Origin: a bacterium
Lineage (GTDB): Bacteria > Margulisbacteria > Marinamargulisbacteria > JABIPA01
Reading direction: 5' to 3'
Length of the DNA: 64,000 bases
NCBI GenBank assembly: GCA_018698675.1
Contig: JABIPA010000019.1
Coordinates: 17,902-81,901 of the forward strand
A program made the position numbers and the translations under genes. Position 1 is the first letter of the stretch, and every line of letters starts with the position of its first letter. Positions 1-55,311 of the stretch are shown here, piece after piece. The notes beneath the pieces were generated by a model. The model saw only the letters and a list, made by a program, of their open reading frames with translations, had not been told where the DNA came from and did no database searches.

Positions 1-2679
1 CTTAAAAAATCTAGTTTTCCTACCGAATATTCAAATAATATTGCTAAAGAAGAAGTTGAAAAATTTATTCAAAAACGGATTAAAGAGTTGGATGTTAAGA
101 TAATTAATTCTCAGTATAGCAATAAAATGTTAATAGATAATTTAGAGGATTATTGTACGAATTTGGAATCTGACGATTCATTGAAAGGTACACGAAATCC
201 TGTATTAGGGCCTTTAAAAGAGCTCCTTAAAAAAATTCAAACTACTCCTTTATACCTATTGTCCAATCATCTTACTGGAAAAATATTGGATAGTAATATT
301 GGTATTACAAATGAAAAATTTGAAGAACTCGTGTTAAAGACATTCATGATGTATGAAAAATTAAATGAGCCTAGTAATTTATTTAAGTTATTACCACCTT
401 TGTTATTAGACCAGGCGTCAGTAAATAAAATTCAAGAATTGCCGGAACGATATAACAAGACATTTAATTATTTGGGAGTATCGACTGTTTATAATGATGA
501 GATGATTAAGGCATACGAACTTAAAATAGGTAGTAAAAATCGATATTTTATTCCTGTTTTAGATACAACAACGGGTAGAGTTTTTAAGGTGACTGATATA
601 GAGCATGCTTTAGAGCTTCCGGATGACCATTCTTTATTATCTTATAAAAATCATGCAACTTTTTGGTTTAAATCAGACGGGTTTTTTGATAGTTGCACGG
701 ATGTTTCTCAAGATGATGTAAATCAGTCAAATACCTCTGTATCGATAGAAAATTTTATTATTCAGTTAGAAGACATATCTAAACTTATAGCTAATTTGAA
801 TCAACAGGATGAAGAATACTTTGATATTGAACTTGAAGCTCTTGAAAAAGGTATTGTTTCATCGGGTCAAGATGCAACACAATATAAACTTACATCGTTT
901 GAAGATCTTTGTAGAAAATTTAATAATGAATTTCTAAGTTCTTCTCCTAACTATAGTGATTTTAGTAAGTTTATTATGGAAAATATATTATTAAAGGGCG
1001 AAGAACTTGTTCTTCCTGAACAGTTTTCGGAAAACTTTTTGAGTACTATTTCTAATAAAAGATATAAAACTACGATTAATAAATTTTTGAAAAAATTTAA
1101 AGAACAGTTTACCACTTTTAAAGTGGATATTATGGAAGGAGATATTGTTGCTACAGTTCATCATCGTCTTACATATTTGAAGTCAATTTGTGACAAAATT
1201 GATGAACTTCGAGAAAATCACCAAGATGGATTGATTCCTTTTGTTTTGGATGACAATTTTGAAAAAAATGAACCTCTTATTGTCTCTCTATTAAGTTTAA
1301 AAGAAAGGCAAACGCTAATATCATTTACTCAAAAGGATGATGAAATTACGACATATAATCGAAAGTCCATTGAATCAAGCAAAGGTTTGAAATCAAGAAA
1401 AAATACTGTGGGTGTTTCAAATACACCTTCTATGTTGCCAAAAAATAAGGTTTCTAAAGATGTAGATCCTGGTTTGAAAATTGTTAAAAATAAGTTATTT
1501 GTAGCCGTAAAAACTTTTTTTGGACTGTTTTTTCTTCATTGGATATATAATATTGTAAATCAGAACTCAGTTCATTCTATATTTAAAAATTCGGAAAATG
1601 CTAGAGGTTTAAGTTTGTTAGAAGTAGATGCTCTTAAATCCGGAAGTGCGAGTGATCAACTGAAATGGTTGAGGCTAAGTCAAACGAATAAGATGACGAC
1701 AAATGACGTTCATTTCGATCGCAATAATTTAGATCTTTTTATTCACTTTTTAGGATCCGATAAGAATGATATTCGTCAAATGAGTAGTAATCTTTTAGTT
1801 TCTCACCTTGATTCATTGATAGATAGAAACGTTATAGAAAAAAATGGAAATTTGGTGCCCGTTTTAATACATAATTTGAAGAGTAACAAAGCCAGGAAAA
1901 TAGTTAATACGGTTGTATTGCTGGATGAATTCTCTAGGTATGATGGTTTATGTCTCATGTTAAAGTCTAAATTAGATGTTCTTGAATCAATCTTAGATAT
2001 TATAGTTAGAGACAGAGAAAAACCTCATTTCAATGATACTTTAAAAACATTTTTTAATATCGTACAACCAACTGGAAATAAATTATTAACTTATCCGATG
2101 GTTACTACAGATAATTTTCAATTTAATGAGAAAATGTCATATGCTACATTAGAATTTGCGAAAATGTTTAGGGCCCTTCGAAGTCGGGATGTATTTTTAG
2201 ATACTCAATCATTGTCATCAACTATTTGTCACTTATTGCAAAGTAAAAAGAGAGAATATAGACACGGTGGGTTTACGTTACTTCATCATATGGGAGACAA
2301 CCCTAGGTATAGGACTTTACTAAATGAAGAAAGCAAGATTCATTCAGAGGTAATAAAATTGGTCGAGTCGTTGTCTACAAATGTTCGAGAAGACGGAATT
2401 AGTCATTTAACAATGTTGTCTCGGATGGAGGCGTTTAATGGGCTTTATTTTAAGTCTCCGTTGTTGTTAGAAAAACTTATTTTAATTTTTACAGAGGAGT
2501 CTACATTCTCTCAACAAAATATTATAGAGACATTTGCTCATTTAAGTACGAAAAAAGAGGGTCGTCTATTTTTATCATCTAATCCTAGATTCATTGACAC
2601 TCTAAACAATATGAGAAGCCAATTTGAAGATGAGAGTGTTCTTATAAATATTGAAGTGATAAGACGGAGTACTTTGTAG
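1..2679 (+). CDS. Large hypothetical protein, 5'-partial. The reading frame is open from window position 1. The ORF track starts at TTG 88. No recognisable catalytic motif.
   Basis: Uninterrupted frame from nt 1 through 2679 (29 sense codons upstream of the TTG at 88, no stop). At least 863 aa. Convergent with the OMP gene ending at 2695. No TM segment or known motif seen. Confidence 0.45.
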   Translation, partial: LKKSSFPTEYSNNIAKEEVEKFIQKRIKELDVKIINSQYSNKMLIDNLEDYCTNLESDDSLKGTRNPVLGPLKELLKKIQTTPLYLLSNHLTGKILDSNIGITNEKFEELVLKTFMMYEKLNEPSNLFKLLPPLLLDQASVNKIQELPERYNKTFNYLGVSTVYNDEMIKAYELKIGSKNRYFIPVLDTTTGRVFKVTDIEHALELPDDHSLLSYKNHATFWFKSDGFFDSCTDVSQDDVNQSNTSVSIENFIIQLEDISKLIANLNQQDEEYFDIELEALEKGIVSSGQDATQYKLTSFEDLCRKFNNEFLSSSPNYSDFSKFIMENILLKGEELVLPEQFSENFLSTISNKRYKTTINKFLKKFKEQFTTFKVDIMEGDIVATVHHRLTYLKSICDKIDELRENHQDGLIPFVLDDNFEKNEPLIVSLLSLKERQTLISFTQKDDEITTYNRKSIESSKGLKSRKNTVGVSNTPSMLPKNKVSKDVDPGLKIVKNKLFVAVKTFFGLFFLHWIYNIVNQNSVHSIFKNSENARGLSLLEVDALKSGSASDQLKWLRLSQTNKMTTNDVHFDRNNLDLFIHFLGSDKNDIRQMSSNLLVSHLDSLIDRNVIEKNGNLVPVLIHNLKSNKARKIVNTVVLLDEFSRYDGLCLMLKSKLDVLESILDIIVRDREKPHFNDTLKTFFNIVQPTGNKLLTYPMVTTDNFQFNEKMSYATLEFAKMFRALRSRDVFLDTQSLSSTICHLLQSKKREYRHGGFTLLHHMGDNPRYRTLLNEESKIHSEVIKLVESLSTNVREDGISHLTMLSRMEAFNGLYFKSPLLLEKLILIFTEESTFSQQNIIETFAHLSTKKEGRLFLSSNPRFIDTLNNMRSQFEDESVLINIEVIRRSTL

Positions 2680-2694: not shown

Positions 2695-3993
2695 TTAAAA
2701 CTTTAAACTAATTTGAGATCTTAAATCAATCGACTTTCCTGTACCTTTATATTCTGAATTTGAATCTCCGAAATAGAAAATTAATGAATTGTTAAATGTA
2801 AGTTCGTTAATTAACGTATACGTCCATCCCAAGTTCATTAACCCAGACCCGTCGTTAAAGTTTTGAAGAATATTCACGAATGTATTACTTGAGTGATAAG
2901 GAAATTCTGAAATTGTAATAAATGCGGAATGATAATGTTTAGATAATTGATTTGGGATATAGATATTCTCTTCAACTAAGCTATCTATAAGTGATGTATC
3001 AGTCCAGTTTAAAGTCTCAAATCCATTTGTTTGATAATAGTGTTCATAAGTTACCCGGACTCTATTAGGTCGTTCCCAATTGATTGATTTGGATAATTGA
3101 CCCATCCATTGATACTGTCTGGATTCTGATTTGTACTGAACGTCTGACCCATTCATAAAAGGTTCTTTGCCATTAAATATACTTAATTCGCTTAAAATAT
3201 CGAACCCAAAAAGATAGGTAGATGCTTCAAGACCGAAACGGCTACTTTGATTTCGTTTAATCAAAGTAGAAATGCCCAGCTCAATATTTTTTAGGGCTAT
3301 TTCATACTTTGAAACTAGACTTAAGTCACTTGGTTCGTCTGACTGTTGAGAATTTAAAAAGAAGTAAAGATTACTTCGTGTTCCATTTGGTATGTGAACT
3401 TTTAATCCATAAACACCTTCTAGCGCTTGATTTAGATTCAAAAAGTCTTTTTTGTCGACATTTACAAAATCAATTGGATTCCAAAAATGCCCTTGGCCCC
3501 ATTTTAGATATTGTTTTCCAACCCTAAAATAAGAGGTGTAGTCTAAATTGAAATCGACGAAGTATTCTTTAATGTTAATGATAAGGGATTGAGCTGAGGG
3601 GACATTCGGATCATTTATTTGACCTAAGTAGATGTCCATAAACCCCTTAACTCCTTTTTGAAATCGAAAATCCAAGAAGAAATCAGCGTCTGAATAAAAT
3701 TGTAGTCTGTTGTTTGATACGGTGCTTTCAAATAGATTTGAGTTTCTATTTACTTCGTAGAGCCCATACATATTAATTATTCCAGTAAAATTTACAGAAT
3801 TTCTTTTCTCTATTAATGACGTCGTAGAAGGTTGAATCGTTTCAATTGTCATATCGATAGTTTCATTTTCGAATAATGATCCTTTGAAATCAAAAAAGGG
3901 TTCGCTGATGATATCTTCCGATAATAATACAGAAGATAGGCTTAGGAATGTGATTAGAAAAGATAATATCAAAGACTTTTTTAATGATTGCAT
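2695..3993 (-). CDS. Putative outer-membrane β-barrel protein of the exporter cluster
   Basis: N-terminal signal peptide (MQSLKKSLILSFLITFLSLSSVLLS). Alternating amphipathic β-strand character. C-terminal ...SLKF with terminal Phe, typical of BAM-assembled OMPs. Same strand as, and directly downstream of, the LolA-like and ABC genes. Confidence 0.45.
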   Translation of the reverse strand: MQSLKKSLILSFLITFLSLSSVLLSEDIISEPFFDFKGSLFENETIDMTIETIQPSTTSLIEKRNSVNFTGIINMYGLYEVNRNSNLFESTVSNNRLQFYSDADFFLDFRFQKGVKGFMDIYLGQINDPNVPSAQSLIINIKEYFVDFNLDYTSYFRVGKQYLKWGQGHFWNPIDFVNVDKKDFLNLNQALEGVYGLKVHIPNGTRSNLYFFLNSQQSDEPSDLSLVSKYEIALKNIELGISTLIKRNQSSRFGLEASTYLFGFDILSELSIFNGKEPFMNGSDVQYKSESRQYQWMGQLSKSINWERPNRVRVTYEHYYQTNGFETLNWTDTSLIDSLVEENIYIPNQLSKHYHSAFITISEFPYHSSNTFVNILQNFNDGSGLMNLGWTYTLINELTFNNSLIFYFGDSNSEYKGTGKSIDLRSQISLKF

Positions 3994-4000
3994 CGTGTTA

Positions 4001-4816
4001 TTAATTAGATAAATTTTCTAAATACGCCTTTGTGAATATATGATTGTCGATAGGACTAAACGTTATATCTGTAATTTCCCAAACCGTTTTGTTTCCTTTT
4101 TCAAAATTATCAATAACCATTTGCTTAATAGCAATAAATTTATCGTTAATTTTTGAATATTTTAGAAAATATTGTGTTGAAATAAGGGAGTTTGAATAAG
4201 ACTTATTTTGAATTTTTAAAGGAAGTAGGTTGTCCTGTCTGACCCATATCGTCAAATTTGGATAAGCGACATTTGGGAGGTCGGAGGAAACGTCAATTTT
4301 GTAAGCTGGAATCTTTCCTAAATTTACCGTTTGAATAATATCTTCATTGTCAGAGTCTTTTTTTCCTTTATACTGCAATTCATATTTAGGTGTTTCGAAA
4401 TCGCTCGTGTTAGCATCTGACCCGGCTATGCTTTCATCTCTGCTTATGTGCTGAAATGTTCGAGTATTTCTTCGGTACATCCAAAAATGATCATCGGCTT
4501 TCAGATACCCATTTCCTTTTTCCGATTCTGGAGCAGTCATGACAATTAAAAATTGGTCCGTAGATCCTTTTGCAAAATAAATAGATTCCATTTGCTTGAT
4601 CCCTTGTTCAATATCTTGTTGAAGAATGGTTACTTTTGCCGTGACATCTTTTTCTATTGTTTGTTGTTTATCTATTTTTTTTAAAATTTTATTGATAGAT
4701 GGTTTTAGTTTAAGGGATGTTGCCGAAAGTGAGGATGCTATCAATATGGTCGTTAAAAAAATAGTTATTGTTAATGGTCTGTTGTTTGAAACTGGGTAGT
4801 TTGTTTTATCATTCAT
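4001..4816 (-). CDS. LolA-like / outer-membrane lipoprotein-sorting-like periplasmic protein
   Basis: N-terminal signal anchor (LTITIFLTTILIASSLSATS). About 270 aa, the size and position typical of LolA_like proteins that accompany FtsX-type ABC exporters. 7-bp gap to the OMP gene and 14-bp gap to the permease gene. Confidence 0.4.
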   Translation of the reverse strand: MNDKTNYPVSNNRPLTITIFLTTILIASSLSATSLKLKPSINKILKKIDKQQTIEKDVTAKVTILQQDIEQGIKQMESIYFAKGSTDQFLIVMTAPESEKGNGYLKADDHFWMYRRNTRTFQHISRDESIAGSDANTSDFETPKYELQYKGKKDSDNEDIIQTVNLGKIPAYKIDVSSDLPNVAYPNLTIWVRQDNLLPLKIQNKSYSNSLISTQYFLKYSKINDKFIAIKQMVIDNFEKGNKTVWEITDITFSPIDNHIFTKAYLENLSN

Positions 4817-4830
4817 TAAATAATCCTTTC

Positions 4831-6531
4831 TTAACGCCTTAGTGCTTCTGATGGACTTAATTTTGCAGCATTTCTACACGGGAAGTAAACTGTAATTAGA
4901 GTGAATCCTAGAACTAATAATAAATTTTTAATGATATGAGATAGAGTTGGTAAAAAATAAATGCCGTTATCTACAAGTATCATACTTAGTGCATTGTCTG
5001 TATTGAATTCGAATAGTGAGATACCTTTCATGATACCAAACGAAATTAATATGCCGATTACAGAACTAATAGAAACAAGGATTAACATCTCTAAAAGAAA
5101 TATCCATTGCAGTTGTGATTTTTTAAGACCTATTGCTCTTAACGTTCCAATTTCCCTATAACGTTCCTTTATTGTCATTCTTAAAGAATTTAGGACTCCA
5201 ATCATAATAATAAAGAAGAGAATAATTGAAACGGAAAGAACAACTAAATTAAACATTTGTTCGAACTGAATGACTTCCTTTGCGGTTTCATACATCGAAG
5301 ACACATCAATCGTTGGTTGTGCTTTTTTATTTTTCATTAACGTTTTTAATTTTTTATTGAATGAAATGGTATCCTTTGTTCTTTTTGTTAACGTCCATTC
5401 TGTATCTATGACGTCTAGTATGGAGATATCAAAATTATTTTCTGTAAAATATTTTTGTAGATTTATTTTTTTATTTGGATAGGTGGTTTGGAATAGTTTA
5501 AAGAATCTTTCGCTTGGTAAGAAAATGATATTTTTTGATGTTTTAGAATAGATTCCTTTAACGGAGTCTTTTATGGGTATCGTCCCATATTTATTTGGCT
5601 CTCTTTGTGAAAATGTTAATTTTGAATGGGATGCATCAAGAGTATTTGAAATTATAGGAACATTTAGTACCGTTGCACGTTTTTTAGTTGTAGTAACGTC
5701 ACTTAGTTTGATTCCTAAACGTGTTGAAATGTTGTTTTGGGATGGTATGGTCCCTATTGGGACTACGATGATAGTTTTATTTCCTAATTTTGCCTGAATA
5801 CCTATTTTTTGAGGTGATAAATGTTGATGAATAGAGTCGGCCGTTGTTTTTGCCGTTTTAGGGTTTTTTAGAAGCAGCTTGAATGAACCCGACTCTTGGA
5901 GTTTATAGCCTAATAACGTTTTTAATGTGGCTGTTTTTGAAAAAATGGCATAGTCCATAAACATGTTTTTATTTTTCGTTATTATGGAAAGAATAAACGT
6001 ACCAGTGTTTGTTTGTCCGTTTACATTTGTTGCACGGATATTAACGGAATCTCCGATAGAAATGTTTAAATTTTTGGCCTTTTGTTCGGAAAGTATGATG
6101 GGATTATCTATAGATTCGAAAAGCTCATAACTACCTTCTAGTGGTTTATAGAGCTGCTTAAAATCCTCATCTAAATTTGTGTTGCTTACCCATGCATAAT
6201 CTCCTTTTCCATTCCCGACAACTCTTACTAGGCTTCCTATATCTTCATAAATGGTTTGAATATTTGGGTCACTTTTAAGGATGAGTGATTTTATTTTTTC
6301 TTTGTCTCTAAAAATAGGAGAAATGATTCGGCCGTTTTCAATTCCTTGAACTTTTACGTGTCCAGTCATGTATATAACCATTTTATTTAAAATATTGTCA
6401 GAAATACCGTTTGAAAATGCATTTGCTAACATCATGATCATGATGCCAAAACTTATAGATGCACCAATCATAAGGTTCCTTCGTTTTTGTCTTAAAAAAT
6501 TTCTAAAACTAATTTTCCAAATAGTAAACAT
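4831..6531 (-). CDS. ABC transporter permease, FtsX/MacB/LolCE family (permease 2)
   Basis: N-terminal TM (MIGASISFGIMIMMLANAF), a large periplasmic domain, and a C-terminal FtsX domain with the family motif RMTIKERYREIGTLRAIGLKKSQL plus three more TM helices. Confidence 0.8.
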   Translation of the reverse strand: MFTIWKISFRNFLRQKRRNLMIGASISFGIMIMMLANAFSNGISDNILNKMVIYMTGHVKVQGIENGRIISPIFRDKEKIKSLILKSDPNIQTIYEDIGSLVRVVGNGKGDYAWVSNTNLDEDFKQLYKPLEGSYELFESIDNPIILSEQKAKNLNISIGDSVNIRATNVNGQTNTGTFILSIITKNKNMFMDYAIFSKTATLKTLLGYKLQESGSFKLLLKNPKTAKTTADSIHQHLSPQKIGIQAKLGNKTIIVVPIGTIPSQNNISTRLGIKLSDVTTTKKRATVLNVPIISNTLDASHSKLTFSQREPNKYGTIPIKDSVKGIYSKTSKNIIFLPSERFFKLFQTTYPNKKINLQKYFTENNFDISILDVIDTEWTLTKRTKDTISFNKKLKTLMKNKKAQPTIDVSSMYETAKEVIQFEQMFNLVVLSVSIILFFIIMIGVLNSLRMTIKERYREIGTLRAIGLKKSQLQWIFLLEMLILVSISSVIGILISFGIMKGISLFEFNTDNALSMILVDNGIYFLPTLSHIIKNLLLVLGFTLITVYFPCRNAAKLSPSEALRR

Positions 6532-6532
6532 A

Positions 6533-8053
6533 TTAGTTCCTTAGTACTGAATCGAGGGGCGTTATTTTTCTAGCTAAATAGATAGGATAAATTGATGAGA
6601 GGCAAACGATTAGGCTGAGTTGAAGAACACAGAGCCCCACACTTATAAAATCAAGAGTAGGGGAGAATGTATCTCCACCATATAAAATTTGCAACATTTC
6701 ATGGCTTGTTGATAACTTTAAAAGTTTGAATCCAATAATTGTGATTGAGCCTAATATGATTCCAGCCCCGCCAAATACAAATGACAGTAGACTCGTTTCT
6801 GCCAAAAACATTGTTTGAATGAATCTTTTCTTTGTTCCAATTGCCCTCATCATGCCAATTTCAGGAATACGCTCCATAGTTGCCATGCTTAAGGTGTTCA
6901 TAATTATGATTATAGCGACGATGAAAATGAAAAGAACAAATAAGAAGAGAGATCCCTTCATGAGCATCGCAATTTGTCCGAACATTCCAATAGCGTCATT
7001 CCATGATATGGCTTGCAATGGAATGTTTTTCTCCTTAAGTAAATTGTTTATTTGAGTGATCGTTTTATTTAAGTTTACGTCTTTTTTTAATTTTACAAAG
7101 ATAATGTTATAGGTTCCCAATTTTTTATCTAGTTGGGATGTTTTGATGTGCTTTATGTCTGATAGGTCATTTTTTATTTTTGTCGTTGATTCATTTACTG
7201 TATCAAAGGAATCGTTAAATAAAGTGTCAATGGAATCTAAGCTTGAAGTCATTAAATTTTGATTTTTTGTGCTCAAATGAACGGCTTCGTCTGAAGATTC
7301 AAAGTATCCCATACATTCTCTAAATGAACTCATATCAACAATGCAGTAAAACCCTAGGATACTATTTAATTCTTTAAATTTTACGATACCTATAACATCA
7401 GTCAAAATATCTAAACTCGCATTTTTACTACTTAGTCCCATATATACAATTGATTTTTTTGTTTGTAGGGAGGAGCCATTCTTTTTTACTTTTTCAGGGG
7501 CTTTTTCTTGGTCAAATGAAGTATTTATCGGTACTGTCCATGAATCTGTAAAATCAAAATACCAGTCTCTCATTCGGGTTGATACAAGAACTCCCCTTTG
7601 GTTTTTTTTGAGAAGTGAGCCTTTTTCAACGATTAAATTATTATTAAAAAATTCTAAATATGATTCAATGTCGACGCCTAATAAATATTGGTCCAACGGA
7701 TTTCCATTTTCGTTGAGAACCCAAACATAGCCAGCTCCTGCGGGAAGAATTTTATCTATTGATGGGATATTTAATATTTGAGGCTTTAACTCAGTGAAGT
7801 TAGTAATAGGTTTTAAGGTATGACCTGTCATACTTGCGAGAACAGTTTTTTCGATTTGTTTATCTGAAACTAGAACCAGGTCCCCTGAAAAGTTGTTAAC
7901 AATATTTTTTTGAAGGCCTGTATCTAATCCGTTTATAACTCCATTTCCAATTGTCATAATGAAGGAACCTAGGCATAAGATAAGTCCTATAACGAAAGAC
8001 TTTCCTTTATGTCTATAGAGATTTCGCCATGCAATTTTTAGTTCAATTGGCAT
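6533..8053 (-). CDS. ABC transporter permease, FtsX/MacB/LolCE family (permease 1)
   Basis: Same architecture as the adjacent permease. FtsX motif ERIPEIGMMRAIGTKKRFI. Overlaps the ATPase gene by 11 nt. Confidence 0.8.
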   Translation of the reverse strand: MPIELKIAWRNLYRHKGKSFVIGLILCLGSFIMTIGNGVINGLDTGLQKNIVNNFSGDLVLVSDKQIEKTVLASMTGHTLKPITNFTELKPQILNIPSIDKILPAGAGYVWVLNENGNPLDQYLLGVDIESYLEFFNNNLIVEKGSLLKKNQRGVLVSTRMRDWYFDFTDSWTVPINTSFDQEKAPEKVKKNGSSLQTKKSIVYMGLSSKNASLDILTDVIGIVKFKELNSILGFYCIVDMSSFRECMGYFESSDEAVHLSTKNQNLMTSSLDSIDTLFNDSFDTVNESTTKIKNDLSDIKHIKTSQLDKKLGTYNIIFVKLKKDVNLNKTITQINNLLKEKNIPLQAISWNDAIGMFGQIAMLMKGSLFLFVLFIFIVAIIIIMNTLSMATMERIPEIGMMRAIGTKKRFIQTMFLAETSLLSFVFGGAGIILGSITIIGFKLLKLSTSHEMLQILYGGDTFSPTLDFISVGLCVLQLSLIVCLSSIYPIYLARKITPLDSVLRN

Positions 8054-8720
8054 TTATTTGGCCGTCGCGTATCGTGATTGATGAATCGGCGTATTTGAGT
8101 ATTTCTGGGTCGTGAGTAGAGAATAAAAACGTTGTTTTTCTAGTTTTATTTAAATCCTTCATTAGTTTTAGAATGATGGCTCCCGTTTCGGAGTCTAAAT
8201 TTGCGGTCGGTTCGTCAGCGAGCACGATTTCTGGGTCAGTCACCAAGGCTCGGGCAATTGCGACTCGTTGACGCTGGCCCCCCGAGAGTTCTGATGGACG
8301 GTGATCTTTTTGGTCCATTATATGAACGGATTTCATCATATCTAAGGCTTTTTGCCTGATTTCTTGTTTAGAGTATTTATTCATTAATAGAAGAGGGAAT
8401 TCTATGTTTTCTAATACATTTAAAACGGGAATTAAGTGGAAGGATTGAAATATAAATCCAATGTTGAAAAGACGAAGTTCTGTTAGCTGGTTATCTGTTA
8501 ATGAATCTATTTGATTTCCGTGAATTTGAACAGATCCTGAACTTGATTTGTCTATACATCCGATAACGTTAAGTAGTGTGGTTTTCCCACTTCCAGAAGG
8601 ACCAACTATCGCTGAAAAGGATCCTTTTTCTATCTTTAAATTAATGTTTTTCAGAGCATGGACAACTGTTTTACCTAAATAATAGTCTTTGTTTATATTT
8701 TTAAGCTCTACAATTGCCAT
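8043..8720 (-). CDS. ABC transporter ATP-binding protein, LolD/MacB type
   Basis: Walker A GPSGSGKTTLLN, Q-loop, ABC signature LSGGQRQRVAIARAL, Walker B LADEPT, H-loop STHD. GGGAG RBS 7 nt upstream of the ATG. Confidence 0.9.
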   Translation of the reverse strand: MAIVELKNINKDYYLGKTVVHALKNINLKIEKGSFSAIVGPSGSGKTTLLNVIGCIDKSSSGSVQIHGNQIDSLTDNQLTELRLFNIGFIFQSFHLIPVLNVLENIEFPLLLMNKYSKQEIRQKALDMMKSVHIMDQKDHRPSELSGGQRQRVAIARALVTDPEIVLADEPTANLDSETGAIILKLMKDLNKTRKTTFLFSTHDPEILKYADSSITIRDGQINAN

Positions 8721-8756
8721 ATTAGATCTCCCAAATTTATTTTTTTTAAGCGTATT

Positions 8757-8782
8757 AAAGTAACTATTTTATAGTTACTTTA
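8757..8782. promoter_or_regulatory. Perfect 11-bp inverted repeat (aaagtaactat-ttt-atagttacttt) in the 152-bp gap between the nitroreductase operon and the ABC exporter genes
   Basis: Read directly from the sequence. AT-rich palindrome with a 3-nt spacer, so either a weak stem-loop or a dimeric regulator operator. No T-run follows on the coding (minus) strand. Confidence 0.3.
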
Positions 8783-8872
8783 ATTAATATTAAAGCTCGA
8801 GAGTTTGATAAAAGCAAAACTTTTATTATTTCGTTCTGAAGATTCTAGAGTAAAAATAGAGTGGTAGGTAGT

Positions 8873-9901
8873 TTATGCTATTGTTTCATTTTTGGTTAAG
8901 TGAGTTTCTTTTGTTTTTTCTATTGAAAGATAAGGAATTATTTTATTTTGAATACTTTCCCTCTCTATTTGTTCAATTGACGTTGATTTCTTTCGTATAC
9001 CGTATGTAAAAAGTATTTGAGGAGTATGTTTTAGGGAAAACGTTTTTTGTATTTCATCCGACGAGTCTTTTTCAAGAAAAGGAGCGCCATAAAGACATGT
9101 CGATAAGTTTTGTTGCGACAAATGAAGAAGAATACTTTGCAGATCCTGTCCCGTTTGAATTAGGGTTTTCATGTCTGATTTCGAGGATAGTATGATGATT
9201 CCGTCAGCCGTTAAAATATCTGGATATTTTGTTTTAGCGATTGTTTTTCCTATTGATTGATTGGAAGAAATGATAGGCATTATATTTGACGCGAATGTCG
9301 GAATATTTAATGCAGAGAGTGGAATACCTATTTTTGAAGATGAAAGAATAGATGGAAACATTTTATTTAGGGTGTTTTTGAATTTTTTATCAGTAGAATT
9401 TAGGTCAATTCCTTTTTTTGCGTATTTTTCAATTAATTTAAATGATGATTTTTCCTTTAAAATTTTAATTTCCGAATTAATTTCTCTTCTAAAAAATGTT
9501 TTTTCAGTGTTTAAAATGGGTTTGTCGACAACTTGAGGTAAATATTTGTCTCTATAGTTTTGTCTTTTTTTAATGAGTTGAATAAGTTTGTTATAGCTAT
9601 GTTCGTTTGTTATTTGTTTTGAGTCCATGTTTACGACTATTTTAGCGATGTTTGGATACTGTGTTTGATACTCAATATTTACAAACCGTTTACAACTTTT
9701 TAGTAGGAGTATCACATTTTGAACAAAACATCCGATGCTTATTAGTTGAAAAGACTTGCTTGGATCAAGTTTATTTAAATCTAAATTGGCGTCTGCGCTT
9801 ATTAATATCGTGTTATCGTGAAAGGCAATTTTCCATGGTTGAGTATTGTAATAAGATGGCGCTAAATTGGCGTGTTCAAGAAGCTGAAGTAAATTAAACA
9901 T
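8873..9901 (-). CDS. Nitroreductase-superfamily protein (SagB/McbC-type dehydrogenase-like), 342 aa
   Basis: N-terminal nitroreductase hallmark ...YYNTQPWKIAF... (N-x-QPW FMN-binding motif). Longer than classical NfsB-type enzymes, consistent with the two-lobed SagB-type. GGAG RBS 7 nt upstream. Confidence 0.55.
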   Translation of the reverse strand: MFNLLQLLEHANLAPSYYNTQPWKIAFHDNTILISADANLDLNKLDPSKSFQLISIGCFVQNVILLLKSCKRFVNIEYQTQYPNIAKIVVNMDSKQITNEHSYNKLIQLIKKRQNYRDKYLPQVVDKPILNTEKTFFRREINSEIKILKEKSSFKLIEKYAKKGIDLNSTDKKFKNTLNKMFPSILSSSKIGIPLSALNIPTFASNIMPIISSNQSIGKTIAKTKYPDILTADGIIILSSKSDMKTLIQTGQDLQSILLHLSQQNLSTCLYGAPFLEKDSSDEIQKTFSLKHTPQILFTYGIRKKSTSIEQIERESIQNKIIPYLSIEKTKETHLTKNETIA

Positions 9902-9925
9902 TGATACTCCTTTTATTTGATTTCT

Positions 9926-10600
9926 TTAAATTATAATGCATGGCAAATTAATATTTTTAATTTCATCTGGGATATCTTTATCATAGTCAAAGTAGTGTAT
10001 TTCCATTGGAAATTTTTTGGATACGTATTTGTTGTGACAAAAGTAGTGAGGGAAGTTTTTTAAAAAATGTGTTTTTATCCCTGATGCATGGAAAAAAGCT
10101 TTTAATACAGATCTTTTACTGCAAATTAACACAATTTTTTTTGAATCAGTTTTTTTAAATTTTAGAAATTGACTATTTAATGTTGATTTAACTAAATTAA
10201 TTCCAATTTGTCTGGAATTTATATACGTTTCTTTTACAACAAGTTTAGTTAATTCTCGGATTTCAAAATTAGAGGTAAGATCGATCTTTTGATTAATTTC
10301 GTCAAAACTCACGTTACCGTATTCTAAGGCGTAGCTGTTTTCTAAATAGGCACCAATCGACCCAATAACTTTTCCATTGGATTTTGCCATTAAAAGTTGG
10401 TCGGGGAAACGTTCGATAGGTTCATTTGAAACAGGTTGTTGGTTTATTAAGGTAACACCATATTTTTTAAAATAAATAGAGGCCATTAACTCTTGGCATT
10501 CTTTTTTTTCGGTTTCATGTTTAACAATTTCTAATGTATGGCTGGACGCGAATTTCGTATTCGTATCATTTAGTTGTTTGATTAATGTTTTGCTAATCAT
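9926..10600 (-). CDS. Hypothetical protein; possibly a GNAT-fold N-acyltransferase / N-acyl-amino-acid-synthase-like protein
   Basis: 224 aa, no TM. Segment NFEIRELTKLVVKETYINSRQIGINLV resembles the E-x-R...V / Q-x-x-G-x-G core of the GNAT/LuxI/NAS fold. Start overlaps the upstream gene's stop (ATGA), indicating translational coupling. Confidence 0.3.
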   Translation of the reverse strand: MISKTLIKQLNDTNTKFASSHTLEIVKHETEKKECQELMASIYFKKYGVTLINQQPVSNEPIERFPDQLLMAKSNGKVIGSIGAYLENSYALEYGNVSFDEINQKIDLTSNFEIRELTKLVVKETYINSRQIGINLVKSTLNSQFLKFKKTDSKKIVLICSKRSVLKAFFHASGIKTHFLKNFPHYFCHNKYVSKKFPMEIHYFDYDKDIPDEIKNINLPCIII

Positions 10601-12885
10601 AGAAATTGGGATACCTTTTCAACGGGTCTTTTTAAGGATGCTATTGGCTCTTGATCCGAATAAAATAATCGAAACAGAAGGACGAGCCCGTTGTCTGACG
10701 AATGTGGAATAATTGGGGTAAATTTATTTTTTAATGAAAGTAGATCTTTTTTAAGCCAAGCTGGAAGAGTTTCTGGCTTTAAATAAAGACGAGTCAGTAA
10801 ATAACAGATGCTCGTCATTGGTTGTAAGCTAAGACCTTCTTTACTTGCTGTTAACCATAATTTTTCAAGTGCCTGTCCTCCATGAAAAAAGCTTAAGGGA
10901 TCATTCTTATCAGTTATAATACATCCAATAGCAGGGCTTTTTTCTATTTGTTTTAAGGAGAAGCTTTCTATCCCTTTTCCTCCCTTAACTTTTTTAAGAA
11001 GTTCAACAACTGACCAGCTTTTTGATAATTTTAATCCAGCGAGATCCAAATTTGATAGATAAAGAGTATCGATATCGATACCATCTCTAGAATCATCAAC
11101 TTCTTTTTTATTCCATCGGATTTCGTTATACATTTCTTCGTGGCATTGTTTGTGAAAGAATCGACATTTTTCTGATTCGGCGAAAATATCCGAAAGTTCT
11201 GCAATGTCTGAAGGGTCTGTTTTAAAAATTACTTTTGTACCTTCAATGCTTTCGCAGGCAGTTGTTAGTTTTGAAAATGTTGACGTTTTAATTTCCTGTT
11301 TTGATGCTTTTTTACGGTTCGTTTTTCGTTTGAATATTTCATTGAATAAATCTGGCATTGTAGTTGTTAGTTCTAATTTTTTAGTTTGTTTAAAAATAGC
11401 AACACATGGAAACGAATCTGGATAAATTGTTTCAAAGGTCATTCCATTTTTTTCGGCGGCTATTTTAAAATTTTCAGCGGCAGCTCCAAGGGCTAAATGA
11501 GAGGCTAGGTAATTTATATCTAAAAATATACCTGCTCTAGATTTGTCTATAAAAAGAAAAACGAGATCGTTGTGGATAATCCACTTCCATGGCTGGATAT
11601 TTCCACCTGAAGGGGCTTGGTTTGCACAATCAATGCATTCGGATATTTTTGATTTTATAATTGGGACTGTAGCTGATAGGTTTTTATCGATTATTATTTT
11701 TTTTGCACAGCTGAATTCATATTCATTAGCGGATATGTCTTTAACTAGCTCCTTATTAGTAGTAATAGATTCCTGAGATTTATTTAAATTATTAGATTCT
11801 GTTTTAGTCGAAGTGGGTTGGTTTTTATCTAGTTCTTCGTCTAAATCGAAATAATAACGCCCCGATTGAGTGTGAGTAGATAACAGAATTCTTCTTGCTA
11901 CGTGAGTTGCAATTCCTGCTCCATTAGAAACTGACGAAGCAAGTTGGGGCCAAGAATTTATGCTTTGTTCAATTTCTAACATACTTGATTTTAATCTATC
12001 GGAAGCATCATTTATTCCAAGAATATCTAAAACTAATGGTATTTTTTCTTCATTTGTAAGATTTTTTAAGTTGGTTTTATTTTCTAAATTAGTAAGTCCA
12101 TGAAATAAAGGTCTGTCAGGCTCTAAATCGAATCGTTCAATATCTAAAAGTTCTCTGTCAGTTGTATGCATGATTACAGGAATGTTTAAGTTTTTACATT
12201 TTTTTCTTATTTCAATTTTTGTTTCAAAGCAGTCACATTCTTCAATAACGAGGTCAAGTTGAGCTGTTTCTGTAAGAAATTCAGAATAATTTTGGGTGTT
12301 TAAACCTTTGTCGAATATTGTTAATTTTAAAAATGGGTCAATTTCAAGTATTTCACGTGCTGTTAAAATTGCTTTGTTCATACCGATGTTTTTTACATTT
12401 GTTCTAATTCTATTTAGATTTGAAAGTTCAATTGAATCGAAATCAGCAAGTCTAATTTCACCGCATATTCTTTCTTGTGCAATAGTTAGCGCTATTGCGT
12501 GACCTACGGATAGCCCGACGACGCCTATTTTTTTTGCTTTTAATTCGATTTGTTCTTCTTCTGAAATTTTGTACATGTTTCTTGCTGTTCTTAATTTAAT
12601 GAATTTATTTTCATCAAGAAGATGCACGAGGTGATTATTCCACGGGTAATATACCCAAACCCCAATGTTATTTTTATTACCTGTGTCAAAATACTGTTTT
12701 TTAGCATTTTCTATGACTTTGTCTGATTTTTCGTTAGGAATAAAGAGTTTTGTATATTCTAATAGTTGACTTTCGATTTCATCAAAAATTTGGATATTGG
12801 AATTGTTTTTTAAATGCACAAGTTTATCAGCGTCGATTGGATTATTAGGATCTAGTATATCTACTTGAAATTTATATTTTTCCAT
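10597..12885 (-). CDS. ThiF/MoeB/E1-like adenylyltransferase domain fused to tandem nitroreductase-like domains (MoeY/Rv1355c-like architecture)
   Basis: E1 Rossmann motif IGVVGLSVGHAIALTIAQERICGEIRLADFDSIELSNLNRI (G-x-x-G-x-x-x-G ... D-x-D ... SNLNR, as in ThiF/MoeB/MccB). C-terminal half carries the nitroreductase hallmark APSGGNIQPWKW. 762 aa. Confidence 0.7.
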   Translation of the reverse strand: MEKYKFQVDILDPNNPIDADKLVHLKNNSNIQIFDEIESQLLEYTKLFIPNEKSDKVIENAKKQYFDTGNKNNIGVWVYYPWNNHLVHLLDENKFIKLRTARNMYKISEEEQIELKAKKIGVVGLSVGHAIALTIAQERICGEIRLADFDSIELSNLNRIRTNVKNIGMNKAILTAREILEIDPFLKLTIFDKGLNTQNYSEFLTETAQLDLVIEECDCFETKIEIRKKCKNLNIPVIMHTTDRELLDIERFDLEPDRPLFHGLTNLENKTNLKNLTNEEKIPLVLDILGINDASDRLKSSMLEIEQSINSWPQLASSVSNGAGIATHVARRILLSTHTQSGRYYFDLDEELDKNQPTSTKTESNNLNKSQESITTNKELVKDISANEYEFSCAKKIIIDKNLSATVPIIKSKISECIDCANQAPSGGNIQPWKWIIHNDLVFLFIDKSRAGIFLDINYLASHLALGAAAENFKIAAEKNGMTFETIYPDSFPCVAIFKQTKKLELTTTMPDLFNEIFKRKTNRKKASKQEIKTSTFSKLTTACESIEGTKVIFKTDPSDIAELSDIFAESEKCRFFHKQCHEEMYNEIRWNKKEVDDSRDGIDIDTLYLSNLDLAGLKLSKSWSVVELLKKVKGGKGIESFSLKQIEKSPAIGCIITDKNDPLSFFHGGQALEKLWLTASKEGLSLQPMTSICYLLTRLYLKPETLPAWLKKDLLSLKNKFTPIIPHSSDNGLVLLFRLFYSDQEPIASLKRPVEKVSQFL

Positions 12886-13163: not shown

Positions 13164-14561
13164 ATGAACACAATTACAAACCTTTTGATGCTGTATGGTG
13201 GTATTTTATTAATAAATACTATTATTTCAATTTTTCTTTGGATAAATGATAAATCTAAAACTAGTTTCTATAAAATTATGTTTTATATTTGGTTTTCGAG
13301 TGTTGTTGCTTTTGTTTTTCAAGGAATATTGCAGCAAAATGACTTAGCTATTGTATCTGGTTTTGCTTTTACATTGTTTACTGTTTTTTCTTTAGTTTTC
13401 CTATTTAAAGATATTTATTCTTTTCGGGTACCTATTAAACGATTAGTCGGGTTTTTCGTCGTTTCTTATGGAACAACTATTTTACTTTTAATTAATGGTA
13501 TTGAATTTGTTTATGCTGTTTTGCCTTTGTCCTTTAGTGTTGCATTACCCTTACTTGTTACGGCATATCATGGTTTTTTTAAACGATGGAACGAGCTTAC
13601 CTTTCCCGGGAAAGGATATATTTGGGTAGCTGTAATGTTTTCTATCCATATTTTAGATTTTCCATTTTTGAGAAAGGTTGATTCCGCAGCGACTCTTGGT
13701 TTTTTAATTGCTATTCTCATCGTTTTTGGATTTTCTATTTTCGCGCCTGCCATGGTTATAGAAATTCTTGCAAAAAGGCAAACTCGGATTGTTGCTGAAA
13801 TTGATGTTGCTAAGAAGATTCAAACTGAAATTTTACCTAAAGACCCTCATGTTCCTGGGATGGATCTTACATGTTTTATGAGGCCTGCAGATGAGGTTGG
13901 GGGCGATTATTATGATATTTACTCTGTTGGAGACAAGACATGGTTGTTTCTTGGAGATGTGACTGGACATGGTCTCGGATCCGGCCTCGTGATGTTTATG
14001 GCTCAAAGTATTATTACTTCTATATTAGAGACAAACCAGTCGATTACTCCTATGGGTTTAAATCTGTTGTTTAACCAAATATTATTTAACAATTTGGAAC
14101 GATTGAATGAAAAGCGTCCGATGGCTCTAATTTCTTTATGTTTTGGAAAAAATAATTCGGTTGCTCTTAGTGGTAATCACGATCTTATTTTTGTGTACCG
14201 ATATAAAACTAAATTGATTGAAAAATTGGAACTTTATCAATTTCCTATGGGACTAGGGTTTACCGATAATTTTGATGAGTCTGCGGTAAAAGATGAATCA
14301 TTGGTTTTAGAAGACGGAGATATTTTATTCTTGGGAACAGACGGAATTACTGAAGCGGCGAGACATGGGGACGTTAATTTAGGCATGTTTGGTGAAGAAC
14401 TTTTGGAAAAATGGTTGGAAGAGAATTGTGAAAACACCGTTGATGAAATGAAGAAGTCATTGCTTGAAAAATTGGACAATTATACCAATGGAAATTACTT
14501 TGATGACATTACTTTTGTAATTGCACGTTTAGATTCTCAAAAACTGGGTAAAATTATTTAA
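13164..14561 (+). CDS. Membrane-anchored PP2C-family (SpoIIE/RsbU/SiaA-like) Ser/Thr phosphatase with an N-terminal 6-7-TM sensor domain
   Basis: About 200 aa of successive hydrophobic helices, then a PPM domain with motifs DEVGGDYYD, GDVTGHGLGSGLVM, GTDGITEA and DDITFV (metal-binding Asp residues). Confidence 0.8.
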   Translation: MNTITNLLMLYGGILLINTIISIFLWINDKSKTSFYKIMFYIWFSSVVAFVFQGILQQNDLAIVSGFAFTLFTVFSLVFLFKDIYSFRVPIKRLVGFFVVSYGTTILLLINGIEFVYAVLPLSFSVALPLLVTAYHGFFKRWNELTFPGKGYIWVAVMFSIHILDFPFLRKVDSAATLGFLIAILIVFGFSIFAPAMVIEILAKRQTRIVAEIDVAKKIQTEILPKDPHVPGMDLTCFMRPADEVGGDYYDIYSVGDKTWLFLGDVTGHGLGSGLVMFMAQSIITSILETNQSITPMGLNLLFNQILFNNLERLNEKRPMALISLCFGKNNSVALSGNHDLIFVYRYKTKLIEKLELYQFPMGLGFTDNFDESAVKDESLVLEDGDILFLGTDGITEAARHGDVNLGMFGEELLEKWLEENCENTVDEMKKSLLEKLDNYTNGNYFDDITFVIARLDSQKLGKII

Positions 14562-14563
14562 GT

Positions 14564-15172
14564 ATGGATACAAGTATATTTAAAATTAATAAATTAAGCC
14601 CCAAGAGTTTGTTTTCGGATTCAAAACAATCTTGGTTCTTTGGTGACTACATAACATTAGAAGAAGACGAAATGATTTTTTCGGAATGTCATCTAAAATT
14701 TTTGCCACTCCATTTAATTTCTAAATGGTCTAGATGTGGATTAACAGCCGAATATTTATCAAAGTACATTGCCTTGAATTCAGAGAAGATTATTGAAGTC
14801 GAAAATTTTGCGTCGACTGTGATTAATGAATTGATTGAAAACGCAGTTAAGTTTTCGTTTGATAAGTCAGAATCAATATTGGTATCTATGCACCAAACTG
14901 AAAAAGCAGTGTTGGTTAGGATAGAAAATGTTGCCGATTACGATTCGGTAAAAAAATTCGTGGATTTTTTAGAAGAAATCGACTTAACGGATATAGAAGA
15001 AACGATGATTAAACGAATAGAAAAGAGTGCAACGTCAGATGGAGATGTGTCTGGTTTGGGGATTTTATCTATCATCAATGATAGTGATGTTACCTTTGGT
15101 ATGAAAATTTGTTCAGAATCGGCAGAAGACGAGACGTTTTCAGTAGATATAAAAATATTATTTAAAATTTAG
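14564..15172 (+). CDS. SiaB/RsbW-like anti-sigma-factor-type Ser/Thr kinase (GHKL ATPase-like), paralog 1
   Basis: N-box-like INELIENAVKFS and glycine-rich GDVSGLGILSI. Paralogous to the 15541..16107 product (shared ...SKWSRCGLTAEYLSKY... / ...SEWERCGLISDYLARY...). 2-nt gap after the phosphatase gene. Confidence 0.55.
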   Translation: MDTSIFKINKLSPKSLFSDSKQSWFFGDYITLEEDEMIFSECHLKFLPLHLISKWSRCGLTAEYLSKYIALNSEKIIEVENFASTVINELIENAVKFSFDKSESILVSMHQTEKAVLVRIENVADYDSVKKFVDFLEEIDLTDIEETMIKRIEKSATSDGDVSGLGILSIINDSDVTFGMKICSESAEDETFSVDIKILFKI

Positions 15173-53781: not shown

Positions 53782-55311
53782 TTGACGATTGACGGCAATG
53801 GGAATAATAATTTAGATATGATTTCCTTTATTTTAAAAAGTTTTAAATTTTCACTAATTTTTAGTTTACTCTCTTGGAGTATCTTTTTTTCATACAATTT
53901 TATTAAATCCTTTGGACATAAAGAAGGATCTTTAATTGTAAAAATCTGTCCTTTAATTCAAACTCACTCAAACGAAGAATTTGATGTTAAATCTGTGTTT
54001 TTATCTTTAAAAAAGAATTTTAAGTCTCAAAACATCGCTATTAATATGAAATTTAGTAAGAATGGTCCGGATAATCAAAAAGATGATGATTTAAATTATT
54101 ATACAGCGGTTGGAATTGGAATGGATAAATCTGATCCTGCGGATATAGTCATTTGGGGATATAGGCGAGGAGATGTTAATACATATTATTTAACACTTTG
54201 TCAGGATTTGTCTCCTCTAGATATAAATGGACAAAAGATAGCTCCTATCCATAGTTATTATGAACAAGAATTAAAATTTCAGACTACTAGATTTCGAAAT
54301 ATTAAAGATATTGAATATCTATTGAAAGGTCTTGTTTATTATAAAGGCAAGAATTGGGATGAATCAGTTGATGCTTTTAATAATGTTTCATTGCCGATTG
54401 GTATTTTTTATAAAGGTATTTCTGTTTTTTCGAAATATTCAGGGCATCTTAAGGCTCAATCGAGTCATTTTAACGAGGACATATCTTCTGAACCTTCTGA
54501 TAGGAAAGTAGAACAGGGTTCTGTTGCTGATAGAGTAAATGAGTCTGTTTTTATCTCTAAGCAGAGTTCTCAATCAAGTTTAAGTAATTCCTTAGAAAAA
54601 GAACGTTCACAGATAAATTTTGGAGATAGAAGTGAAGAAAATGGTTCTGTAAAAACTCAAATGACGTCTCTTGTTCAGGGTATTTTTATTCAACAGATAA
54701 AAAATAAATTTCAATCTGAACAAAATCAGTCAGGTTTAGGAAATATGGAGGCTGACCAAGAGAATAAAAATGATCGGAACTTAAGAACTTTTAATCAAAT
54801 GACGAACGAAGGATTAGGAGACTTTTCTACATTTAATTTAGAAGGTTCGAATACTTCTGACAATGACGCGGATTCTTCTTTTTTGCTTAATATTCTTTCT
54901 TCCATACCTGGGCTTTCTGAAAAAATTCAGCCATTATTATCAATGCTTTTACCAGGTCTAGAAACTACTAAAAAGGACGGTGATGGAAACTCCTCGGTTA
55001 ATACTTCAGAAATACTCCAAGTTCTTCAGCAAATGATGTCTAGTGGTGTTTTAAGCTCTGTAGGAGGTGGGGGTAGTTCTTCTGGACAACTGGATATGAT
55101 AAATTCTGTTACGAAAATGATGGGCCTTCCTGCAGTTGATGAATCTAAAATTCAAGCAATTTTGAAAGATTTACCTGATATTGGAAAAAATGGAATAGAT
55201 TCTACCGCTATTATGGACGTTGTTAAAAAACATAGTAATGGTTCGTCATTATCAATTGAAAACACGTCTGATTTGGAAAAAATCATGCAAGACATGTTAA
55301 ATCAAAACTAG
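53782..55311 (+). CDS. Membrane-anchored low-complexity (Ser/Asn/Gln-rich) protein, unknown function
   Basis: N-terminal TM (FSLIFSLLSWSIFFSYNF), then about 450 aa rich in S/N/Q/G and predicted disordered (e.g. SSVGGGGSSSGQ). Confidence 0.35.
   Translation: MTIDGNGNNNLDMISFILKSFKFSLIFSLLSWSIFFSYNFIKSFGHKEGSLIVKICPLIQTHSNEEFDVKSVFLSLKKNFKSQNIAINMKFSKNGPDNQKDDDLNYYTAVGIGMDKSDPADIVIWGYRRGDVNTYYLTLCQDLSPLDINGQKIAPIHSYYEQELKFQTTRFRNIKDIEYLLKGLVYYKGKNWDESVDAFNNVSLPIGIFYKGISVFSKYSGHLKAQSSHFNEDISSEPSDRKVEQGSVADRVNESVFISKQSSQSSLSNSLEKERSQINFGDRSEENGSVKTQMTSLVQGIFIQQIKNKFQSEQNQSGLGNMEADQENKNDRNLRTFNQMTNEGLGDFSTFNLEGSNTSDNDADSSFLLNILSSIPGLSEKIQPLLSMLLPGLETTKKDGDGNSSVNTSEILQVLQQMMSSGVLSSVGGGGSSSGQLDMINSVTKMMGLPAVDESKIQAILKDLPDIGKNGIDSTAIMDVVKKHSNGSSLSIENTSDLEKIMQDMLNQN

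Follow-up and report, generated by a model that had tools for sequence, protein, structure and literature searches.

We analyzed a 64,000-nucleotide (nt) window of contig JABIPA010000019.1 (positions 17,902 to 81,901 of the forward strand; GenBank assembly GCA_018698675.1), from a bacterium of the Marinamargulisbacteria lineage JABIPA01. On the minus strand of this window, five consecutive genes encode a LolD-like ATP-binding cassette (ABC) ATPase, two FtsX-type permeases (FtsXa and FtsXb), a LolA-like carrier and an outer-membrane β-barrel. This cassette is probably an uncharacterised route that moves hydrophobic cargo to the outer membrane. The order ABC-FtsXa-FtsXb-LolA-like-barrel was found in 60 of 62 informative loci, and the five-gene arrangement is not a product of chance.

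The five open reading frames (ORFs) fill the stretch from 8720 down to 2695. Their coordinates are exactly those of an initial annotation that a model had made from the sequence alone:

8043..8720, minus strand, ABC ATPase gene; 225 amino acids (aa); LolD/DevA/MacB-type nucleotide-binding subunit
6533..8053, minus strand, permease FtsXa gene; 506 aa; FtsX domain and hydropathy
4831..6531, minus strand, permease FtsXb gene; 566 aa; FtsX domain and hydropathy
4001..4816, minus strand, LolA-like carrier gene; 271 aa; PF17131
2695..3993, minus strand, predicted outer-membrane barrel gene; 432 aa; 18-strand β-barrel in the AlphaFold2 model, distant DUF1302 relative

The first two genes overlap by 11 nt and the following junctions are gaps of 1, 14 and 7 nt, in line with the statement in the initial annotation that the genes overlap or lie at most 14 bp apart.

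Conservation of the unit was assessed with a genome pattern scan of one genome per species. The scan used alignment A1, the 77-sequence alignment A2 being too diverse for it, and revealed 198 barrel relatives. We fetched 80 loci, 62 of which were informative (at least 5.6 kb upstream). The two loci outside the count of 60 retained three of the four partners, and in these an insertion displaces the ATPase gene beyond the searched stretch. Median intergenic gaps along the cassette were 2, 9, 17.5 and 7 nt. The lineages represented are Marinamargulisbacteria, Elusimicrobia, Spirochaetota (Brevinematales and Leptospirales), Fibrobacterota, Desulfobacterota, several candidate phyla and metagenome-assembled genomes (MAGs) labelled Bacillota. 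Two distant members, looked up independently, had the same five genes. Co-conservation had been named beforehand in the initial annotation as a test that could refute its proposal, and the shared order was found across many phyla.

The 'Bacillota'-labelled MAGs carry the full cassette, including the barrel (L010, L014, L015, L029, L037, L041, L047 and L064). We interpret these as diderm Firmicutes lineages, or as mis-binned or mislabelled contigs.

Inserts of 1.4-3 kb occasionally split the cassette (L024, L026, L043 and L044), with the five-gene order otherwise intact. They comprise a GGDEF response regulator with DUF1207/BON, an opposite-strand α-amylase-family gene, a B12-binding radical SAM gene and an IS110 transposase. 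As the inserts are unrelated genes, the enlarged gaps do not point to a sixth component. The flanks of the cassette are not conserved, the largest flank cluster containing 8 of 346 ORFs. Among the 55 immediately upstream genes there was no recurrent family and no conserved neighbor or regulator that would hint at the cargo. Regulators were rare there (two response regulators, one LytTR, one AraC-type and one HTH_34 among the 25 families listed). The kept order, tight gaps, variable flanks and rarity of regulators together mark the cassette as a self-contained five-gene module.

Family searches place the engine of this module close to the Lol system. The ATPase matched ABC_tran (PF00005) in Pfam with an E-value of 1.9e-34. 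Its best NCBIfam model was LolD (TIGR02211) at 250.8 bits, under the equivalog cut-off of 307.75, followed by DevA (212), then DarD and the MacB nucleotide-binding domain (205). Its identity to homologues in other phyla was 59-68 % nearly throughout and 49-56 % in three loci. Both permeases contain an FtsX domain (PF02687; E = 5.2e-16 in FtsXa and 3.9e-18 in FtsXb, each above the 25.5-bit Pfam cut-off), and the domain is present in 34 of 34 orthologues of each. Hydropathy predicts type VII topology for both, with a first transmembrane (TM) helix, a large periplasmic domain and three further TM helices:

FtsXa, minus strand: TM1, residues 22-40; periplasmic domain, residues ~41-366 (nt 6956-7933), ~325 residues; TM2-4, residues 367-485
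FtsXb, minus strand: TM1, residues 20-38; periplasmic domain, residues ~39-428 (nt 5248-6417), ~390 residues; TM2-4, residues 429-548

Pfam, NCBIfam and hydropathy thus agree with the initial annotation on an ABC ATPase and two FtsX permeases with large periplasmic domains.

The likeness between FtsXa and FtsXb is confined to the TM regions (28-34 % identity). A family profile of 34 FtsXa orthologues matched LolF best (7e-15), then YtrF (7e-14), LolE (3e-9) and MacB (1e-8). The corresponding FtsXb profile matched LolE best (2.5e-18), then LolF (1e-17) and MacB (8e-9), and also the isolated periplasmic domain of LolE (5udf; 1.4e-4). The check for the MacB periplasmic core domain (MacB_PCD, PF12704) proposed in the initial annotation gave a divided answer: 15 of 34 FtsXb orthologues matched (best 1e-11), whereas neither window permease did at E-values up to 0.1, nor did any of the 34 FtsXa orthologues. 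Against the LolC/E equivalog (TIGR02212), the window permeases scored 66.9 and 58.8 bits (cut-off 362.45), and mainly the C-terminal part aligned. Because ATPase and permeases fall under the curated LolD and LolC/E cut-offs, we regard the engine as Lol-like, a Lol paralogue, and not as LolCDE. The 'Lol/MacB-like' label of the initial annotation therefore leans toward its Lol half (LolE/LolF over MacB) but stops short of LolCDE itself. No membrane-fusion adaptor (HlyD family) or TolC-type protein was detected among the five cassette proteins or the scanned neighboring ORFs.

The 271-aa protein belongs to the Pfam family PF17131 (LolA_like; E = 9e-33, 113.9 bits against a cut-off of 30), and this was the only LolA family that Pfam reported for it. 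Sequence matches in the PDB, all of them solved proteins of the LolA superfamily, were 3BUU (1.2e-9), 9TP6 (6e-6), 3BK5 (4e-5) and 4Z48 (2e-3). The N-terminus has one hydrophobic segment, which we read as a signal peptide, and lacks cysteine. The LolA-like protein with a signal peptide that the initial annotation described is thereby corroborated, with these features:

Carrier, minus strand: signal peptide, residues ~1-30
Carrier, minus strand: PF17131 domain, residues 86-268 (nt 4013-4561)

A lipobox pattern occurred in 3 of 75 orthologous ORFs, all outside a signal-peptide context, and hydrophobic N-terminal segments were general. Given these signal-peptide-like N-termini without a convincing lipobox, the carrier is predicted to be soluble in the periplasm like LolA, and not membrane-tethered like LolB. 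Carriers from other phyla are 42-59 % identical to that of the window. The matched structure 9TP6 is LolA3 of Porphyromonas gingivalis, an organism that also has a canonical LolA and whose LolB is not bound by LolA3 (PMC13103446).

At one locus among the 55 upstream-neighbor ORFs (loci L001-L080), a second PF17131 gene (E = 2.7e-59) lies immediately upstream of the cassette, suggesting that the carrier is sometimes duplicated.

The 432-aa protein had no Pfam or NCBIfam match, no match to DUF1302 (PF06980; gathering score 23.2 bits) even at E-values up to 1, and no sequence-level match to any solved structure in the PDB. We rejected the view that it is an orphan, to which a word-indexed protein search with 7 relatives might have led; an exhaustive HMMER profile search gave 1482 clusters of relatives at 50 % clustering, 370 of them below 1e-30. 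A tblastn search of the barrel against plasmids gave no match. An earlier AlphaFold2 run on 7 sequences was too weak (predicted local distance difference test, pLDDT, of 55) and was replaced by a run on alignment A2. The resulting model has 18 β-strands, a pLDDT of 86.7 and a predicted template modelling (TM) score, pTM, of 0.80. Foldseek matched it in the PDB to outer-membrane barrels only (MOMP, AlgE, OprD/Occ, OmpF and ChiP), with E-values of ~1e-10 and TM-scores of ~0.5. The protein ends in SLKF, and at least 90 % of the 77 relatives share its C-terminal F432. On the signal peptide, the C-terminal aromatic residue and the closed all-β model, we are confident in the prediction of an outer-membrane β-barrel, which upholds the C-terminal-Phe barrel of the initial annotation. 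Its parts are:

Barrel protein, minus strand: hydrophobic segment, residues 7-25; signal peptide, residues 1-25; barrel, residues 66-431 (nt 2701-3798)
3400..3531, minus strand, most conserved block, residues 155-198, YFRxGKQxLxWG..FWNPxDxxN..K..F...G.YG.K; strand 5 and the long loop to strand 6
3865..3915, minus strand, short conserved motif at the mature N-terminus, residues 27-43, D/E-x-x-D-E-...-L-F-x-D/E

In the conserved block, five residues never vary (G159, Q161, G166, P173 and G193) and three others hardly do (W165, W171 and D175); the AlphaFold2 model shows residues 162-193 as a loop. The N-terminal motif is carried by D30 (56/77 in A2), E31 (64/77), L40 (54/77) and F41 (75/77). The AlphaFold2 model shows the surrounding segment as disordered (residues 23-57, pLDDT <50), and the barrel topology places it in the periplasm. 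The D-E...L-F motif might conceivably serve as a docking peptide.

DUF1302, which the initial annotation had suggested as one possible family, was a close guess. The window protein itself lacks a Pfam match, but 34 of the 77 barrel relatives matched PF06980 weakly (best E = 1.6e-5). Comparison of A2 with the DUF1302 alignment by hhalign gave a probability of 91 % and an E-value of 1.1e-6 over 201 columns, with the FRxGKQxLxWG block aligned to the RVGRQIVVWG block of DUF1302. By these profile comparisons, the barrel is distantly related to DUF1302 and has diverged beyond the reach of the Pfam model. A published model of DUF1302 is likewise an 18-strand barrel, and its structural matches are again AlgE/Occ-like (PMC13499233).

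By analogy with the Lol system, we consider it fairly probable that the cassette forms a relay in which a Lol-paralogous type VII ABC module ends at a barrel and not at LolB. The LolD-like ATPase dimer would power a FtsXa-FtsXb heterodimer. The permeases would carry nothing across the inner membrane; instead, their periplasmic domains would pull the cargo, a lipid-anchored or strongly hydrophobic molecule, from its outer leaflet. The cargo would be handed to the soluble PF17131 carrier, which would cross the periplasm and dock on the 18-strand DUF1302-like barrel. The barrel would then let the cargo enter or cross the outer membrane.

As cargo we favor an endogenous, widely conserved envelope lipid, glycolipid or lipoprotein subset over a local secondary metabolite or xenobiotic. 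This preference follows from the conservation across phyla, the rarity of adjacent regulators, the variable genomic context and the housekeeping setting in the window. The cross-phylum identities of the ATPase (59-68 %) and the carrier (42-59 %) also fit a conserved cargo. The hybrid trans-envelope route put forward in the initial annotation is supported by synteny and homology, and these are its basis; the contacts between the proteins, the direction of transport (outward) and the nature of the cargo are inferences that go beyond it. Neither of the two outcomes that the initial annotation had named as refuting was obtained: the 271-aa and 432-aa proteins did yield LolA-family and β-barrel assignments, and the five genes do occur together elsewhere.

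Several observations weigh on this relay. Besides the synteny and the family assignments, we count in its favor that the carrier-barrel pairing recurs behind other pumps and that P. gingivalis LolA3 does not bind LolB, which sets the PF17131 carrier apart from the canonical Lol pathway (PMC13103446). Other points weigh against it. The Lol analogy could mislead, because the scores lie below the cut-offs (66.9 and 58.8 against 362 for LolC/E, 250.8 against 307.75 for LolD) and the periplasmic domains are largely unrecognisable. The likeness of the barrel to the substrate channels OprD and AlgE reaches a Foldseek TM-score of only ~0.5. Deleting lolA3 (PF17131) left gliding and type IX secretion of Flavobacterium johnsoniae unaffected (PMC11885536). 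Finally, the mutant phenotypes of DUF1302/DUF1329 genes in Pseudomonas putida concern growth on fatty esters and were read as catabolic (bioRxiv 10.1101/2020.07.04.188060); that they reflect uptake is conceivable.

An efflux or tolerance pump is an unlikely alternative. It would clear exogenous hydrophobic toxins (terpenes, hydrocarbons, detergents or antibiotics) from the periplasm or the inner-membrane surface and expel them through the barrel, in the manner proposed for AmeABCD and known from MacAB-TolC. Type VII ABC pumps such as MacB do expel periplasmic substrates, and AmeABCD of Castellaniella, a cluster of the DUF1302/DUF1329/RND type, has been linked to growth on and tolerance of monoterpenes (PMC6394551). 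A related MMPL operon of Bacteroidota lies behind a TetR-family regulator gene, and operons of matching annotated composition in Prevotella intermedia and P. gingivalis are strongly induced by iron limitation (PMC10434189). An adjacent TetR- or LuxR-type regulator is, however, usually absent at the cassette. The five parts have all stayed highly conserved in bacteria from very different habitats, and a soluble LolA-fold carrier would be odd in a pump that could use an adaptor and TolC.

It is quite improbable that the cassette is the housekeeping lipoprotein pathway itself, with the ABC module as LolCDE, the PF17131 protein as LolA and the barrel replacing a missing LolB as acceptor or insertase. 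LolD is the best model for the ATPase and LolE/LolF are the best permease matches, and housekeeping genes surround the cassette, which mostly has no regulator next to it. Spirochaetes and alpha-, delta- and epsilon-proteobacteria reportedly lack LolB (PMC11326224), and TP0789 of Treponema pallidum is listed as a structural homologue of LolA (PMC10600179). TP0789 is annotated 'outer membrane lipoprotein-sorting protein', and Pfam now gives its name to PF17131. Against this identification, the permease scores lie far under the LolC/E equivalog cut-off. In spirochaetes, lineages of which also carry the cassette, the canonical LolA is a separate and essential protein (BB0346) that has homologues throughout the phylum (PMC11326224). 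In P. gingivalis, LolA3 exists beside a canonical LolA and does not bind LolB (PMC13103446), and F. johnsoniae tolerates the loss of lolA3 (PMC11885536). With 1482 clusters, the barrel family is also of modest size.

A more novel reading, to which we would give a low probability, is an ancient LolB-independent route in which the barrel, and not a LolB-type lipoprotein, receives acylated cargo from the LolA-fold carrier. Where a phylum lacks LolB, such a route would serve to insert or flip one class of lipoproteins, such as those exposed on the surface, or a major lipid of the outer membrane, with the D-E...L-F peptide as a docking or cargo-release element.

Uptake appears very improbable. Here the barrel would admit a hydrophobic nutrient, the LolA-like protein would shuttle it inward and the ABC module would deliver it to the inner membrane. 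The P. putida DUF1302/DUF1329 mutants impaired on fatty esters (bioRxiv 10.1101/2020.07.04.188060) would fit such a scheme, as would the 18-strand relatives OprD/Occ, which are uptake channels. Pfam, however, revealed no substrate-binding protein or importer-type permease among the cassette proteins. Among the characterised type VII (MacB/FtsX) ABC systems, we know of no importer; all known to us work outward or as mechanotransmitters.

That the barrel is a porin which happens to lie next to the ABC and LolA-like genes, functionally unconnected to them, is scarcely credible. The one point for it is that the barrel has no family annotation. Against it, the barrel directly follows the LolA-like gene in 60 of 62 loci across phyla at a median gap of 7 nt, and the same pairing with DUF1302 is found behind MMPL pumps.

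The surroundings of the cassette in the window (G+C ~31 %) are mostly housekeeping genes in the rest of the sequence scanned, including alaS, mfd, purH, dxs and prfC. Two features of the upstream region may bear on expression:

8721..8872, minus strand, intergenic gap, likely promoter region; 152 nt between the ATPase gene and the same-strand upstream gene
8757-8781, perfect 25-nt palindrome AAAGTAACTATTTTATAGTTACTTT, within the 152-nt gap, read from the sequence

The gap also contains the block CTCGAGCTTTAATATT...AAAGTA.CTATAAAATAG, which is partly retained in the closest relative (L004); one half of the palindrome, with the adjoining CTCGAGCTTTAATATT block, is retained there as well. The palindrome could be a promoter or operator. 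A scan for consensus promoters and terminators found no more sites in this AT-rich region than in shuffled sequence.

Directly upstream of the cassette, three genes lie on the same strand (8873-12885, minus strand). They encode a Rv1355c-family ThiF-nitroreductase fusion (762 aa; 719 bits against NF005901), a 224-aa protein without a family match and a 342-aa protein resembling Acg-family flavin mononucleotide (FMN) oxidoreductases. We rejected this trio as a general maker of the cargo, as it is absent beside the cassette in other loci. Beyond it, 13164-15172 (plus strand) encodes a protein whose N-terminal half, as read from the sequence, is hydrophobic and multi-pass and which carries a SpoIIE/PP2C phosphatase domain; after 2 nt it is followed by a gene for a 202-aa protein without a Pfam match. 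The layout of the two genes resembles that of a partner-switching signalling pair.

On the other side, a gene for an 863-aa protein (88-2679, plus strand) converges on the barrel gene, with 15 nt between the stop codons. Its sole match, a plant U-box ARM-repeat region, is sub-threshold (32.7 bits against a cut-off of 33). Two further long ORFs, 31184-33205 (minus strand, 673 aa) and 53782-55311 (plus strand, 509 aa), had no Pfam match at E-values up to 1e-5.

How hydrophobic molecules pass to or through the outer membrane is poorly understood outside Proteobacteria, and LolB is missing from most phyla. DUF1302 barrels have no solved structure and no assigned function, and the role of the PF17131 'LolA3' proteins is likewise unassigned. 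The cassette joins a Lol-type ABC extractor, a LolA3-type carrier and a DUF1302-type barrel as one unit across deep-branching diderm phyla, with a barrel family of ~1500 clusters that current domain libraries miss. It thereby offers a concrete five-gene target for genetics and complex prediction.

Among known systems, AlgE and OprD/Occ resemble the barrel in overall size and strand number and are its top Foldseek matches (E ~1e-10), but TM-scores are only ~0.5, identities are 8-12 % and there is no sequence-level match. MacAB-TolC has the type VII ABC fold in common with the cassette, and 15 of 34 FtsXb orthologues contain a recognisable MacB-like periplasmic core domain. It differs in that the cassette has no adaptor or TolC, a separate ATPase polypeptide, a soluble carrier and an 18-strand barrel of the monomer type.

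The Borrelia BBJ23-BBJ29 cluster, described computationally in 2026, likewise unites a MacB/Lol-like type VII ABC module, a LolA-like protein with a signal peptide and a dedicated barrel (PMC13078400). It differs in its proposed homodimeric permease, Omp85-family barrel and two tetratricopeptide repeat (TPR) proteins, and in being confined to Borrelia plasmids (PMC13078400). Our tblastn search of the carrier against the plasmid collection returned no Borrelia plasmid record, and hence no BBJ28.

The LolCDE-LolA-LolB system for lipoprotein trafficking of E. coli, with LolDF as its counterpart in other bacteria, is similar in its separate LolD-like ATPase, its two unlike FtsX permeases (as LolC and LolE), its soluble LolA-superfamily partner and its lack of an adaptor and TolC; the permease profiles of the cassette are closest to LolE/LolF. 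In contrast, the Lol permeases have ~400 aa, compared with 506 and 566 aa here and periplasmic domains of 325 and 390 residues. The ATPase and permeases of the cassette score far under the curated LolD and LolC/E cut-offs, and its carrier is a PF17131 protein. LolB is a lipoprotein with a LolA fold, whereas the cassette encodes a predicted 18-strand barrel where LolB would act.

The outer half of the cassette has a parallel in RND/MMPL clusters. Such clusters include Sama_1588-1591, PP_0765/0766 with PP_2018/2019, AmeABCD and a TetR-ABC-ABC-MMPL-LolA-like-DUF1302 operon of Bacteroidota. As in the cassette, a LolA-superfamily gene is directly followed by a gene for a DUF1302-type 18-strand barrel of ~435 aa (PMC13499233). 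In Proteobacteria, cofitness links an RND pump and a BNR protein with DUF1302 and the LolA-superfamily protein DUF1329, and the proposed role of such clusters is the export of a component that is hydrophobic or belongs to the cell envelope (bioRxiv 10.1101/072470; PMC6394551). AlphaFold-Multimer predicts a DUF1302-DUF1329 complex with an interface pTM (ipTM) of 0.84 (PMC13499233). We located one such operon in Prevotella nigrescens (NZ_CP082843.1, L084, 986-9960), where TetR-ABC-ABC-MMPL-PF17131-DUF1302 is followed by an integrase and insertion sequence (IS) genes. Its PF17131 protein also matches DUF1329 (7e-17), a connection between the two LolA-like families of Pfam.

The cassette departs from these clusters in its engine, a type VII ABC module and not an RND/MMPL pump. 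RND/MMPL pumps run on proton-motive force. The cassette also lacks a BNR or Ycf48-like protein and mostly an adjacent TetR or LuxR regulator, and its barrel is too divergent for the Pfam model. In our literature search, we found no description of a Lol-type heterodimeric ABC module combined with a PF17131 carrier and a DUF1302-type barrel. The 'appended' barrel of the initial annotation is indeed present, but it is not an ad hoc addition, as the pair of a LolA-like and a DUF1302-type gene recurs behind RND/MMPL pumps. The pair is already known from those pumps, and here it stands behind a Lol-type ABC engine instead. Carrier and barrel would thus represent a portable unit for delivery to the outer membrane, which can be coupled to an ABC engine as well as to an RND/MMPL one.

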